From positions 1-38,957 of the forward strand of contig JAGWLG010000034.1 of the NCBI GenBank assembly GCA_028864975.1: DNA of 38,957 nucleotides, in the 5' to 3' direction. This document shows positions 26,873-30,515 of the stretch, in pieces. The notes under the pieces were generated by a model. The model was not told the DNA's origin, did no database searches, and saw nothing but the letters and a program-made list of their open reading frames with translations. The number at the start of each line of letters is the position of its first letter. Positions within the stretch are counted from its first letter, which is position 1. A program made the translations under genes and the position numbers. The DNA is from Thermoplasmata archaeon (lineage in GTDB: Archaea > Thermoplasmatota > Thermoplasmata > Lutacidiplasmatales > UBA184).

Positions 26873-27676
26873 TCACGGGACCTTGATGGACGAAGGGTGC
26901 TCCGGTCCCTTCGGGTACTTGAGGTGCATCTCTTCGAGCGCGCCGACCAGGACCTTCGAGACGCACCAGTTGCGGAACCACTTGTGGTCGGACGGGATGA
27001 CGTACCAGGGGGCCCACTGGGAGCTGGTCAGCTCCAGTAGCTCCTCGTACGCGCTCTGGTAGTCCGACCAGAACTGCCGCTCGTGCAGGTCGGACGGGGA
27101 GAACTTCCAGTGCTTCGTGGGGTCCTCGAGCCGGGCCTCCAGCCGTCGCTTCTGTTCCTCCTTGCTGATGTGGAGGAAGAACTTGAGCACCAGGGTCCCT
27201 TCGCGGTCGAGCTCCCGCTCGAACTCGTTGATCGCCCGGTAGCGCTCCTCCCAGACCTCCTTCGGGACGAGATGGTGGACGCGCACCGCGAGCACATCCT
27301 CGTAGTGGCTCCGGTTGAAGATCGCCATGTGGCCTTTGGGCGGCGTATGGAGGTGGACCCGCCAGAGAAAGTCATGCTCGAGCTCGGTGGAGGAGGGCGC
27401 CTTGAACGAGGCCACCTCCACCCCTTGGGGATTGACCCCTTCGAAGACGTGGCGGATCACCCCGTCCTTCCCGGCGGTGTCCATCCCCTGGAGGACGATG
27501 AGGACCGCGCGGCGATGGTCCGCGTAGAGAAGCTCCTGGAGGCGGTCGAGCTCCCCCCGTAGCCGTTCGAGCTCCGCCTCGGCCTGCTCCTTCTTCCCGT
27601 CGAAGGTGGAGGTGTCCGAGGGGTCGATCTGGTCCAGGTGGACCTTCCCGTGGGCGGGAGCTCGGGGGCCCTTCAT
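26873..27676 (-). CDS. ppk2: Polyphosphate kinase 2 (PPK2, class III-like polyphosphate:nucleotide phosphotransferase)
   Basis: Walker A LQGMDTAGKDGVI, SFKAPS..ELEHDFLWR, FNRSHYEDVL and KFFLHISKEEQ. ATG 27676 follows GGAG. Confidence 0.92.
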   Translation of the reverse strand: MKGPRAPAHGKVHLDQIDPSDTSTFDGKKEQAEAELERLRGELDRLQELLYADHRRAVLIVLQGMDTAGKDGVIRHVFEGVNPQGVEVASFKAPSSTELEHDFLWRVHLHTPPKGHMAIFNRSHYEDVLAVRVHHLVPKEVWEERYRAINEFERELDREGTLVLKFFLHISKEEQKRRLEARLEDPTKHWKFSPSDLHERQFWSDYQSAYEELLELTSSQWAPWYVIPSDHKWFRNWCVSKVLVGALEEMHLKYPKGPEHPSSIKVP

Positions 27677-27805
27677 GCTATGCTCCAGGAACCCGCGCCC
27701 GTGCCGGTCGTCCCCTCCGGCGTTGCGCCACCCCGGTCCACCCCAGCGGAAGCCCCCTCCCAAGCCCGCAGAGGAGGGTTCGACACCGCTGGGCATCATA
27801 TAGCG

Positions 27806-27813
27806 TTTTATTA
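27806..27813 (+). promoter_or_regulatory. TATA-like box for leaderless tnpA
   Basis: TTTTATTA about 25-30 bp upstream of ATG 27837, with no SD in between. Confidence 0.55.
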
Positions 27814-27836
27814 CTTTTTGTTCAGCCATATTTGGC

Positions 27837-28652
27837 ATGAAACTCTCCGAGTGGGCCCACACTGCCGGGGTGCGCTACGAGACCGCGTGGCGCTGGTTCC
27901 GGCAGGGGATCCTCCCCGTCCCGGCCATCCAACTGCCCACGGGGACGATCCTCGTCCTCCCCCAGGTCCCCTCCCGCGACGGGGTCGCCCTCTATGCACG
28001 CGTCTCCTCACACGACCCACGGGGGGACCTCGACCGACAGAAAGGCCGCCTCGTCTCCTTCGCCACAGGGCGCTCGTTGAAGGTCGCCCGCGTTGTCGAA
28101 GAGGTTGGCTCCGGGCTCAACGGCCGTCGCCCCAAGCTCTTGGCGCTCCTGCGCGACCCCGAGGTGGGGACCCTCGTCGTGGAGCACCGTGACCGCCTGG
28201 CCCGCTTCGGTGCGGAGTACGTGGAGGCGGCGCTCGCCGCGTCGGGTCGGCGCGTCCTCGTCATGGAGGACGGGGAGACCGCCGACGACCTGGTCCAGGA
28301 CATGGTGGACGTCCTCACCTCCTTCTGCGCCCGCCTCTACGGGCGTCGGTCCGCCCGACGTCGGGCCGAACGAGCGCTGGAGGCGGCCGGGGGCCCGACC
28401 GATCGCCCTCGTCTCCCTCTTCGGACCTCCCCAGCGCTCTACGGTCCTGCACCGTCGGGAGGATCACCCGGACCTCTAGCTTCATCCCGTAGGACCGGAG
28501 CAAGGTCTCGACCGCGGGGAGGTCCCGGGCGAAGAGGACCATCGCCCCGCGTCCGAGGCGCCGATGAGGGATCCCGTCGAGCAACCCATGATAGGCGTAC
28601 TCCCGAGCCGACCGGGGGGACCTCACGGTCCGACCGTAGAGCTTCTGGCTGA
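27837..28652 (+). CDS. tnpA: IS607-family transposase TnpA (MerR-like HTH plus serine recombinase); C-terminus reads through about 85 extra codons
   Basis: MKLSEWA...GVRYETAWRWFRQG, YARVSS (catalytic Ser), EEVGSGLNGRRPKL, VVEHRDRLARFG and DLVQDMVDVLTSFCARLYGRRS. Family-like sequence ends near 28390. Confidence 0.92.
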   Translation: MKLSEWAHTAGVRYETAWRWFRQGILPVPAIQLPTGTILVLPQVPSRDGVALYARVSSHDPRGDLDRQKGRLVSFATGRSLKVARVVEEVGSGLNGRRPKLLALLRDPEVGTLVVEHRDRLARFGAEYVEAALAASGRRVLVMEDGETADDLVQDMVDVLTSFCARLYGRRSARRRAERALEAAGGPTDRPRLPLRTSPALYGPAPSGGSPGPLASSRRTGARSRPRGGPGRRGPSPRVRGADEGSRRATHDRRTPEPTGGTSRSDRRASG

Positions 28653-28746
28653 GGCGGGTCATCGAGCCGCGATGGGCCCGGGCCGGCGCCTGGAAGAGGA
28701 GGAGGACGACCTTCTCGTTCCCTGAGGCGAGGTCCGAGCGGGGCAA
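28315..28746 (-). CDS. Small conserved-looking archaeal protein (possible Cas2/VapD/PaaX-C-like ferredoxin fold) as cargo inside the IS
   Basis: TTG start 5 nt after a perfect GGAGGTG. RLSQKLYG...YAYHGLLDGIPHRRLGRGAMV...LPAVETLLRSYGMKLEVRVI resembles a recurring small archaeal family. The fold call is from memory. Confidence 0.6.
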   Translation of the reverse strand: MPRSDLASGNEKVVLLLFQAPARAHRGSMTRLSQKLYGRTVRSPRSAREYAYHGLLDGIPHRRLGRGAMVLFARDLPAVETLLRSYGMKLEVRVILPTVQDRRALGRSEEGDEGDRSGPRPPPALVRPDVGRTDARRGGRRRR

Positions 28747-28751
28747 GCGAG

Positions 28752-28790
28752 CACCTCCGGATTGTTGTTAAGGCAACAACCTTCATATCC
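28752..28790. promoter_or_regulatory. SD, palindromic operator-like site and TATA-like tract between the cargo gene and tnpB
   Basis: CACCTCC (SD on the minus strand) at 28752-28758; GTTGTT-AAGGC-AACAAC at 28764-28780; CTTCATATC at 28781-28789. Confidence 0.55.
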
Positions 28791-28824
28791 CTTTGCGTCC
28801 TCTTCCCTTCTCCCCCCTGGACCC

Positions 28825-30000
28825 GTGCTCAGCTCCACCGCGATCGCCGCGCCCCCTCCATGTCCCTTCCCCGCCCCCTGTCCGCGGACCGGGAAGCACG
28901 AGCGCACCCTGCGCTCCACCAGGTGCTCCCTTCGGTCGATGACCGCCTCCAAGCGTGCGCTCCTCGCTTCGGTGATGGAGGAGTACGGCAGGGTGGTCAA
29001 CCACTTCCTCGACAAGTTCTGGACCCGAAAGTGGTCAAAGAACGAGCTGACCCGGGAGAACCTGGTGGTCCCGGAGACTTGGCTCACGGCGCGACTTCGG
29101 AAGGTCGCGGCGCGCGAGGCGATCGACATGGTGGCCGCCGCCCGGGAGCGGGACGGGGTGTCCGCGAGGAAACCGGTCCATCGCGGCCGACGGATGTGCG
29201 TCTCCTCGACCATCGCCTCGCTCAAGCCCTCCGAGCAGGGTGGGGAGTTCGACGCCTGGCTCCATGTGGCCTCCGTCGGCCGGGGAATCGTGCTCGACCT
29301 TCCACTTCGGTATCATCGCCACTACCACCGGTACGCGAACGACCCCCGCGCCCGTCGGACCGAGTCGTACGTCATCACCCTGGACTCGGTCCAGCTCGCC
29401 TTCGAGATGGACTTCGAGCCCCCGCGCCGTGAGGGCCCCGAGTTCGGGGTGGACAGCGGGATCACCGCGCTCGCCACCCTGTCGGACGGGACACGCCTGG
29501 GGACCGACATGAAAGCCTCGGTGGAACGGGTGAAGCGCTGTCGGCACGGGTCGAAAGGGCAGCAGCGGGCCCGCCGTGCGCTCAAGCAGCGCATGGCCGA
29601 GGTCGCCCTCGAGCTCGTTTCCCGGAACCCCCGGCTCGTCGTGGCCGAGGACCTCCTGCTCCTCTCCTACGGGAGGAAGACACACCGCCGCGTGTCGAAA
29701 AATATGCGGCGGAGTCTCGGTGCGTGGACGAACCGCAACTGGCTGGACCGGCTCGACATGGCCTGCGAGGCGAACCGTGTTCGCTTCGAGCGTGTGCCTC
29801 CGGCCTACAGCAGCCAGCGGTGCCATGCCTGCGGCCACACCGAGAAGGGGAATCGAGCTGGGGAGGTGTTCCGGTGTCGGGCGTGTGGCTACACCGACCA
29901 TGCGGACGTCAACGCCGCGCGGAACCTCCTGGGCCGGTTCTGGGGCCACGAGCCCCGCCCTGCCGGAGCCTACGGTACCGGCTTCCAACGGAAGGCATAG
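28825..30000 (+). CDS. tnpB: Compact TnpB RNA-guided nuclease (IS607-associated); start uncertain (GTG 28825 or ATG 28939)
   Basis: RuvC-I FGVDSG, RuvC-II VVAEDL, Zn finger CHACG...CRACG, RuvC-III HADVNAARNL. Confidence 0.9.
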   Translation: MLSSTAIAAPPPCPFPAPCPRTGKHERTLRSTRCSLRSMTASKRALLASVMEEYGRVVNHFLDKFWTRKWSKNELTRENLVVPETWLTARLRKVAAREAIDMVAAARERDGVSARKPVHRGRRMCVSSTIASLKPSEQGGEFDAWLHVASVGRGIVLDLPLRYHRHYHRYANDPRARRTESYVITLDSVQLAFEMDFEPPRREGPEFGVDSGITALATLSDGTRLGTDMKASVERVKRCRHGSKGQQRARRALKQRMAEVALELVSRNPRLVVAEDLLLLSYGRKTHRRVSKNMRRSLGAWTNRNWLDRLDMACEANRVRFERVPPAYSSQRCHACGHTEKGNRAGEVFRCRACGYTDHADVNAARNLLGRFWGHEPRPAGAYGTGFQRKA

Positions 30001-30041
30001 AACGCTATGCCCGACGAACGGTCACTTCCTCGCAACGTGGT
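29962..30041 (+). ncRNA. Visible 3' part of the predicted TnpB omega/reRNA scaffold plus flank-derived guide
   Basis: Three consecutive hairpins: GCCGG/CCGGC (29962-29982), CTTCC/GGAAG (29982-29994) and GCATAG-AACG-CTATGC (29995-30010). TnpB guide RNAs are known to overlap the tnpB 3' end and the element's right end. The 5' limit is unknown. Confidence 0.5.
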
Positions 30042-30114
30042 CACATTCCGTCCCTGGAACTCAACGAAACGCACTTGGTCTCAAAGGTATTGGTCAAGAT
30101 GGAGTCGACCAACC

Positions 30115-30486
30115 ATGTCCGAAACGGCCCAAGAACCCCCGAAGCGAACCCCGACGAAGGAGACGGTGGACGCCGCCCGCTCGGTCCTGGCCGAGACCGC
30201 CCGGGCTGCCGAGAGCGCCGTGAAGGCGGTCGCCCCGGCCATCCGTGAGGTGGGCACCGAGCTCAAGAAGGCGGGAGATGCCGGGCTCCGAGAGATGGAG
30301 ACCCTCGGGTCGCAAGCTTCGGGCTCGCAGGACCCTCTCGAGGCCGGCGCGGGGAAGGCCGTGGCCCTCGCGGCCAAGGGGACCCGCAAGGTCGCCAAGG
30401 TCGGGATCGGCGTGAGCAAGGAACTCGGCAAGGCGGCGAAGAAGGGGCTGGAGAAGGCGAAGGGCGCAGACCAGCCTTCTTCCTGA
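30115..30486 (+). CDS. Ala/Lys-rich amphipathic helical protein (LEA/phasin-like composition)
   Basis: 123 aa, no aromatic residues, repeated KAV/KVAK/KELGKAAKKG helices. Confidence 0.6.
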   Translation: MSETAQEPPKRTPTKETVDAARSVLAETARAAESAVKAVAPAIREVGTELKKAGDAGLREMETLGSQASGSQDPLEAGAGKAVALAAKGTRKVAKVGIGVSKELGKAAKKGLEKAKGADQPSS

Positions 30487-30515
30487 ACAGCGTCCATCCG
30501 AGGCACGGTCGCGCG

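Follow-up and report, generated by a model that had tools for sequence, protein, structure and literature searches.

The window analysed here is a contig of 38,957 nucleotides (C13; GenBank JAGWLG010000034.1) from a Thermoplasmata archaeon, whose metagenome-assembled genome (MAG) is 89.6% complete and comprises 124 contigs; GC content in this setting is 68%. It contains an IS607-family insertion sequence (IS) in which a minus-strand gene for a small basic protein lies between tnpA, encoding a serine recombinase, and tnpB, encoding an RNA-guided nuclease (Table 1). The original prediction, made from the sequence of the window, took the small gene and its control region to be cargo captured by the IS607 element, and proposed that this uncouples tnpB from tnpA and may create a regulated unit of TnpB and an accessory protein, or an IS607 that carries cargo.

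An IS607 element interrupted at the tnpA–tnpB overlap

In the map of open reading frames (ORFs) the tnpA frame runs from 27837 to 28652 on the plus strand. Its product matches the IS607 equivalog NF033518 with 184 bits against a cut-off of 110 (E 1.8e-54; profile positions 2–186 of 187), PF00239 also matches, and the YARVSS motif is intact, as expected of an IS607 serine recombinase with its N-terminal DNA-binding domain and catalytic serine. The NF033518 match stops at residue 175, and there is no stop codon at the usual place, which leaves TnpA with an 86-residue run-on tail. The tnpB frame is open on the plus strand from 28762 to 30000, through the junction with the inserted DNA; the native ATG is gone, and the in-frame candidate starts are GTG 28825, inside the leader-like tract at 28791–28877, and ATG 28939. 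TnpB contains a Cas12f1-like TNB domain (PF07282, 63.9 bits against a cut-off of 26.3), scores 90.2 with the NCBIfam model guided_TnpB, under the cut-off of 100, and has the RuvC residues D210, E275 and D361 and two CxxC pairs, all invariant in comparison with four orthologues and characteristic of an IS607 TnpB.

Among 186 searched genomes of the order, close TnpB orthologues with 67–73% identity are encoded in G016, G018, G119, G089, G168 (two copies) and G035, and at each full orthologous locus a matching TnpA (66–74% identity) is encoded directly upstream. All six orthologous IS607 copies have an ATGA overlap of tnpA stop and tnpB start with no insert, in agreement with the statement of the original prediction that the two genes are normally adjacent or overlapping; in the window they are 522 bp apart. 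When the window is compared with these six elements by blastn, DNA homology extends from 27837 to 28387, breaks, and then continues from 28910 to 30022, with the junctions placed to within about 10 nt. Because homology stops at 28387 and resumes at 28910, we conclude that an addition of about 522 bp of foreign DNA lies precisely where the two genes overlapped, close to the earlier estimates that tnpA is family-like to about 28390 and that the gap is 450–550 bp. The left (~27794) and right (30022) ends align with the IS607 ends of the relatives, the left end beginning with CATCATATAGCGTTTTATTAC, and thus lie within a few nucleotides of the boundaries first proposed (27791–30021). The insert-free relatives are about 1.75 kb long, the canonical element being 1747 bp as set by two G168 copies of identical length.

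The rank order of identity across the orthologues is the same for tnpA and tnpB, and on these sequence comparisons the two genes are halves of one IS607 element. The insertion removed the tnpA stop and the native tnpB start, and otherwise both genes look intact. Members of the IS607 family have a serine-recombinase TnpA together with TnpB (PMC6188088, PMC4058570, PMC8612924); the element in the window resembles its other members in the equivalog match of TnpA, in the RuvC triad and zinc ribbon of TnpB and in ends that match those of orthologous copies, and differs from them in having the genes parted by 522 bp of another transposon, with the stop of one and the start of the other lost. The ends of IS607 elements are set by left-end and right-end sequences, and the family has neither terminal inverted repeats nor target duplications. 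An empty IS607 site was not found in three genomes of the same genus, where the flank containing the PPK2 gene is syntenic and the other flank is not.

Table 1. Coordinates of the features of the IS607 element and its insert.
Feature	Position	Strand	Evidence or remarks
Whole IS607-family element	27794..30022	+	~2.23 kb; ends placed by alignment to orthologous copies
IS607 left end, promoter-like tract before tnpA	27794..27836	+	AT-rich, 33% GC; CTTTTAT motif kept in relatives
tnpA, serine recombinase, homologous part	27837..28387	+	NF033518, PF00239
Inserted DNA, ~522 bp, at former tnpA-stop/tnpB-start overlap	28388..28909	.	blastn homology break
Small basic protein gene, TTG start	28429..28746	-	Homologue alignment; frame open on to 28315
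Shine-Dalgarno-like GGAGGTG	28752..28758	-	5 nt before TTG; weak evidence
Dyad GTTGTT-AAGGC-AACAAC, candidate operator	28764..28780	.	Position conserved in family
TATA-like tract CTTCATATCC	28781..28790	.	Matches shared TATA box of intact elements (intergenic comparison)
Pyrimidine-rich leader-like tract CTCTTCCCTTCTCCCCCC and remnant of the 5' region of the lost transposase	28791..28877	+	Resembles CTCCCTCTTCCCCTTCCCC-ATG in L008, L011
Possible IS5-like terminal inverted repeat remnant CCTGTCCGCGGAC	28878..28891	+	11 of 14 positions as in GACCTTGGGACAGGTTT of L010; tentative
tnpB, RNA-guided nuclease, without native start	28910..30000	+	PF07282; orthologue alignment
IS607 right end	30001..30022	+	Terminus ...GAACGGT conserved in seven copies

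Just outside the IS607 left end (27765–27793), similar sequence is present across independent copies, with GGAGGGTTCGACAC in the window and GGGGGTTCTGAAC and GGGTTGAAC in relatives (same position in L033, L034, L036, L047, L048 and L055); this flank may be a preferred target or a motif on the side of the transposon-associated motif (TAM) of TnpB. On the minus strand, the longest frame for the neighbouring PPK2 gene (26873–27862) extends across the left end of IS607 into the start of tnpA (27837–27862). Similarity to the PPK2 genes of other genomes in the genus stops near 27650, so the true PPK2 start lies further in and the IS is located in the PPK2 upstream region. An Rfam scan of 27500–30500 gave no RNA family, and a scan for sigma-70 promoters and terminators is uninformative for an archaeon.

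The small gene and its transposase partners

The minus-strand ORF described in the original prediction (28746–28315) is real, but only part of it corresponds to a gene of the family. Homologues of about 100 residues align to residues 1–106 (28746–28429), and the last 37 residues are a run-on through the antisense strand of tnpA, because the stop codon of the small gene is missing. The tnpA and small-gene frames, both without stops, overlap antisense to each other by 338 bp (28315–28652) and encode Arg/Gly/Pro-rich tails; if both genes are expressed, convergent transcription would run through this interval.

A profile search of 1.84 billion representatives returned 552 clusters at E ≤1e-3, counted at 50% identity, and 241 at E ≤1e-10, all of whose members are small stand-alone proteins; the protein in the window belongs to this family with an E-value of 4.9e-23. 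It retains all ten invariant columns of the alignment of its subfamily (A4) and differs at 4 of the 11 nearly invariant ones. A frameshift was considered as the origin of a divergent loop in the protein and was rejected. The family is present in 39 of 401 sampled Thermoplasmatota genomes, the named relatives with the gene are Thermoplasmata or Thermoplasmatota MAGs, and the source genome has further family loci on contigs C36 (L003) and C73 (L004). Alignments A3 and A4 and the tree include one sequence from an unpublished genome (L006, from G161), and none of the conclusions depends on this sequence alone. The protein has no match in Pfam, NCBIfam, PHROGs, PADLOC or PDB sequences, its matches in the ESM Atlas are archaeal hypothetical proteins only, and we found no description of the family in the literature.

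Apart from the window, 90 distinct loci with the small gene were compared, drawn from the order and the phylum as well as from named genomes and metagenomes, and in 70 of them a divergent DDE transposase gene adjoins the small gene. These partners comprise 45 IS5-like transposases of 360 residues, 17 IS1634-like, three IS5 (DDE_Tnp_1_5), two DUF772-DDE, one IS66 and two others; 13 of the remaining loci have no partner that could be found and seven are at contig ends. TnpB is the partner in none of the 90. The IS1634-like partner carries DUF4277 and DDE_Tnp_1, and the DUF772/DDE_Tnp_1 partner is 543 residues long. In G179 and G168 the small gene is located at one end of a 1.55-kb element that is present in three near-identical copies per genome (L026–L031), bounded by the terminal inverted repeats GAGCTTGGGACAAAAC or GGTTGGGACAAAACC and by target duplications of 9 bp; the second gene is divergent, encodes about 360 residues, and has no Pfam match and weak IS5/IS1182 similarity in NCBIfam. 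The 16-bp terminal repeats of this 1.55-kb IS end with TTGGGACAAAAC, and its target duplications resemble CCGAACCCC, TCGGACCCC and CCCGACGAC, which may reflect a target preference.

In a maximum-likelihood tree the sister of the protein of the window is the IS5-like-associated gene of L010 in G007 (support 99/97). Association with IS1634 requires four changes on this tree, and well-supported branches force at least two of these; the tree and the variety of partners together imply that the small gene has changed partners repeatedly. At least four unrelated families of DDE transposases have the small-gene family as their constant divergent partner. Other insertions are found at or near loci of the family. 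At L019 (284–1436) an IS3-family element (orfA and an integrase-like orfB) replaces the 5' part of a close relative of the small gene, which is another nested insertion. In G168 (L037:816–848) an IS607 left end abuts a DDE-element repeat, ATGTCCCACAGCC, and in G001 (L125:1418–3397) a truncated small gene is followed, at a distance of 72 nt, by an IS607 element with the same orientation. The proximity of IS607 to DDE elements with the small gene in G168 and G001 suggests a shared target preference or IS-rich landing zones; both arrangements differ from that in the window.

From this context, the insert is a truncated remnant of the accessory gene and promoter of another family of insertion sequences, and is not a captured host gene. 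No homology to DDE transposases was found in the window, where only the leader-like sequence is left, and terminal inverted repeats of the GACCTTGGGACAGG type are not present at both ends of the insert as they are in DDE elements. On the side of the small gene the terminal repeat is unrecognisable (only GACC matches) and the stop codon is gone; on the tnpB side, CCTGTCCGCGGAC matches the repeat of L010 at 11 of 14 positions. An imperfect 9-bp direct-repeat pair, GCGGCCGGG (28383–28391) and GCGGACCGGG (28884–28893), flanks the insert, and could have arisen by chance in GC-rich DNA. The repeat match and this pair are suggestive of an origin by transposition, and do not constitute proof of it. 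A parent element of the insert was not found as a DNA relative among the 186 genomes of the order. We also considered whether the closest intact element, L010, is itself inside an IS607 element, and rejected this as there is no tnpA or tnpB there; the flanks of L010 share short GC-rich strings with the junctions in the window, which we attribute to target preference or chance.

A probable shared promoter region with a candidate operator

Intact elements have a constant order of features between the divergent genes: the start codon of the small gene, a spacer of 2–6 nt, a palindrome, a TATA box, a pyrimidine-rich stretch and the transposase start. The palindromes have arms of 6–12 bp and usually a centre of 4 nt (e.g. 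TGTGGGCA-ctaa-TGCCCACA and TTATGGGTA-atac-TACCCATAA), and perfect arms of at least 6 bp are present in 29 of 40 family loci compared to 15% of shuffled controls. Because the layout of start codon, dyad and TATA box recurs in these 29 homologous loci, the dyad is a feature of the family and not a chance occurrence. In the compact elements L008 and L082 the centre of the TATA box is 26–29 nt from both start codons. Archaeal promoters have a TATA box at about -26, and leaderless mRNAs are frequent. This geometry fits a single TATA box shared by two divergent leaderless genes, and the palindrome would then cover both the initiation region of the small gene and the B recognition element (BRE) side of the transposase promoter. 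IS5-like and IS1634-like elements resemble each other in sequence across the small gene, the TATA box and the leader, and this resemblance ends at the transposase start codon and at the stop of the small gene; the unit that passes from one transposon family to another is therefore the gene together with its operator and promoter.

The window retains much of this organisation. The dyad and TATA-like tract noted originally are present (28764–28780 and 28781–28790), with the layout known from the family, and together with the leader-like CTCTTCCCTTCTCCCCCC they resemble L008 and L011. The start of the small gene is displaced by about 15 nt with the Shine-Dalgarno-like tract in between, and both candidate starts are about 39–40 nt from the TATA-like tract. 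The GGAGGTG noted as a Shine-Dalgarno sequence is indeed located at 28752–28758, but by itself is weak evidence, since the heptamer is common in the window (17 copies compared to 11.8 expected). The role of the dyad as an operator is plausible, because its position is conserved across the family, and we infer that the small protein may bind the palindrome and repress both divergent genes.

Other activities of the small protein could be envisaged. A confident AlphaFold2 model (predicted local distance difference test score, pLDDT, of 90) consists of a ferredoxin-like sandwich to which a beta-hairpin and a C-terminal helix are added, and no helix-turn-helix was detected in the protein. The lowest root-mean-square deviation matches in Foldseek are Cas2 structures (4es2, 1zpw and 8d3l_E; probability 0.97, template modelling (TM) scores of 0.45–0.56, E ~0.05), as might be expected if the protein were not a DNA-binding repressor but a nuclease or toxin of the Cas2/VapD kind with a stabilising effect on the element, or else a cofactor in transposition. 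VIA-align gives generic ferredoxin-like matches only (Z ≤7.3), among which Cas2 does not stand out, and because the structure searches yield generic matches only we assign the protein to no family. There is no partner antitoxin gene, and the palindrome at the start of the gene and the strongly basic character of the proteins (median isoelectric point, pI, of 10.1 in the family and 11.4 in the window's copy) fit a nucleic-acid binder; a nuclease, toxin or cofactor role appears unlikely.

Origin of the arrangement and its significance

The 2.5-kb region is single-copy in its own genome, and no second copy of the tnpA–small gene–tnpB arrangement was found in that genome, the 186 genomes of the order, the 401 genomes of the phylum or 38 metagenome loci; nor is the small gene present at any of approximately 24 TnpB loci in the order. 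The arrangement looks like a one-off nested insertion. The comparisons establish how the locus is built, where the insert comes from and that these genomes and loci contain no second copy. We consider it probable that an IS5-like element inserted itself at the junction of the IS607 genes and that its transposase was subsequently lost, which is the most likely of the histories we have considered. An IS5-like DDE insertion sequence of Thermoplasmata would have struck an ordinary IS607 element exactly at the overlap of tnpA stop and tnpB start. A later deletion would have left about 520 bp with the accessory gene, the palindrome-plus-TATA region and a few dozen bases from the 5' side of the transposase gene; the transposase gene and the stop of the small gene are gone, and at least one terminal repeat is unrecognisable. 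As side effects, tnpA would have been left without a stop and with its tail of 86 residues, and tnpB without its native start and translational coupling to tnpA. In the intact elements, the small basic protein would repress the shared bidirectional promoter by binding to the palindrome, limiting expression of both the transposase and itself; in the window the rightward promoter of the cassette may transcribe tnpB, with translation starting at GTG 28825 or ATG 28939, by accident and not by selected design.

Nested and decayed insertion sequences, in which one IS lands in another and then undergoes an internal deletion, are familiar, and the window shares with them an IS fragment inside another IS, the loss of the transposase and a terminal repeat, and its single copy. 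It differs in retaining precisely the accessory gene and promoter, facing tnpB, with an open frame across the junction. Several other observations weigh against a history of insertion and decay. The ten invariant residues, the open frame of the small gene, the perfect dyad and the intact TATA-like tract have all been kept, and tnpB is undamaged with its frame open through the junction; the retention of intact parts would also be expected of a functional, selected fusion. Two events are needed, an insertion and a deletion ending within about 10 nt of the tnpB start, and no clean target duplication or inverted-repeat pair proves the route, there being only the imperfect GCGGCCGGG/GCGGACCGGG. In addition, because the MAG is incomplete and divided among many contigs, further copies could be unassembled.

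An alternative explanation that accommodates the intact state of tnpB, the small gene and the dyad is functional recruitment, in which the IS607 element took up a regulator-operator-promoter cassette whose bidirectional promoter, under the control of the small protein, gives TnpB an expression that does not depend on TnpA. The cassette has already switched partners several times among DDE families, its boundaries are the small-gene stop and the partner start codon, and in the window it has its usual divergent orientation, here towards tnpB, with a frame that is open from GTG 28825 into tnpB. However, neither the 90 other loci with their partners nor the TnpB loci of the order provide a second instance of the small gene beside TnpB, the arrangement is single-copy, the loss of both the small-gene and tnpA stops looks accidental, and the TATA-to-start spacing of about 39–40 nt in the window departs from the 26–29 nt of intact elements. 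We therefore regard recruitment as unlikely. A more elaborate version, in which a portable transposase-control cassette is exchanged by archaeal transposons (IS5-like, IS1634-like, DUF772-DDE and IS66) and was taken up by this IS607 element, with TnpB expressed apart from TnpA under a dedicated regulator, seems slightly less likely still.

It is also conceivable that the metagenome assembler joined in the 522 bp, since the genome is a MAG and both IS607 and small-gene elements are contig-breaking repeats elsewhere, with many matches at contig ends. An assembly error of this kind requires two breakpoints, and these would have to restore the IS607 halves in order and orientation exactly at the gene junction; the assembly contains no other copy of either sequence with which confusion could arise, making an artefact very improbable. 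Least probable of all is that tnpA and tnpB derive from two unrelated insertions flanking an independent gene, the outcome that had been named as a test of the original prediction. IS607 copies do adjoin DDE elements elsewhere (L037 and L125), but the matches of the two halves are to one and the same set of orthologous elements, ranked alike, they form one complete element with ends where expected, and homology breaks only at the ATGA junction; two unrelated insertions are therefore excluded, and the interpretation of tnpA and tnpB as one element withstands this test. A nested IS5-like insertion followed by decay thus remains the history that we favour.

These findings modify the initial view of the locus. 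A single IS607 element does harbour a small gene that has a control region of its own, but this gene is not host cargo and instead corresponds to an accessory gene of another IS family. The uncoupling of tnpB from tnpA that was proposed is borne out, as the insertion breaks the coupling and tnpB is located where the divergent promoter of the cassette points; the data show neither a regulated TnpB module that has been selected nor a mobile IS607 with cargo, as no second copy was found in the genomes and loci searched and no TnpB partner at the 90 loci. Associations of TnpB with DDE-type elements, inside which it rides, were described by Altae-Tran et al. 2023 (PMC10691335). The window is similar in having TnpB beside parts of a DDE transposon, and different in that a fragment of a DDE element is inside IS607 with no DDE transposase. 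Transposon-encoded regulators include IS1 InsA, the Tn5 inhibitor and the resolvase or toxin-antitoxin (TA) modules at the tnpA/tnpR intergenic region of the Tn3 family (PMC7157771), and like these the small gene is beside a transposase promoter with a palindrome between divergent genes. Its family differs in its unrelated, ferredoxin-like fold and in being archaeal, TATA-box based, unannotated and common to several unrelated transposase families.

For the locus itself the result is mainly corrective, in that the apparent cargo is debris left by a different transposon instead of a new accessory system of TnpB. The window also offers a natural test of IS607 TnpB function when it is uncoupled from tnpA. 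A by-product of the analysis is an unannotated and widespread archaeal protein family in which the palindrome-TATA geometry is kept throughout. If the small protein is a repressor, as the geometry suggests, it would be a first example of a transposition-control module swapped among archaeal transposons, and would provide a simple system for studying bidirectional TATA-box promoters.

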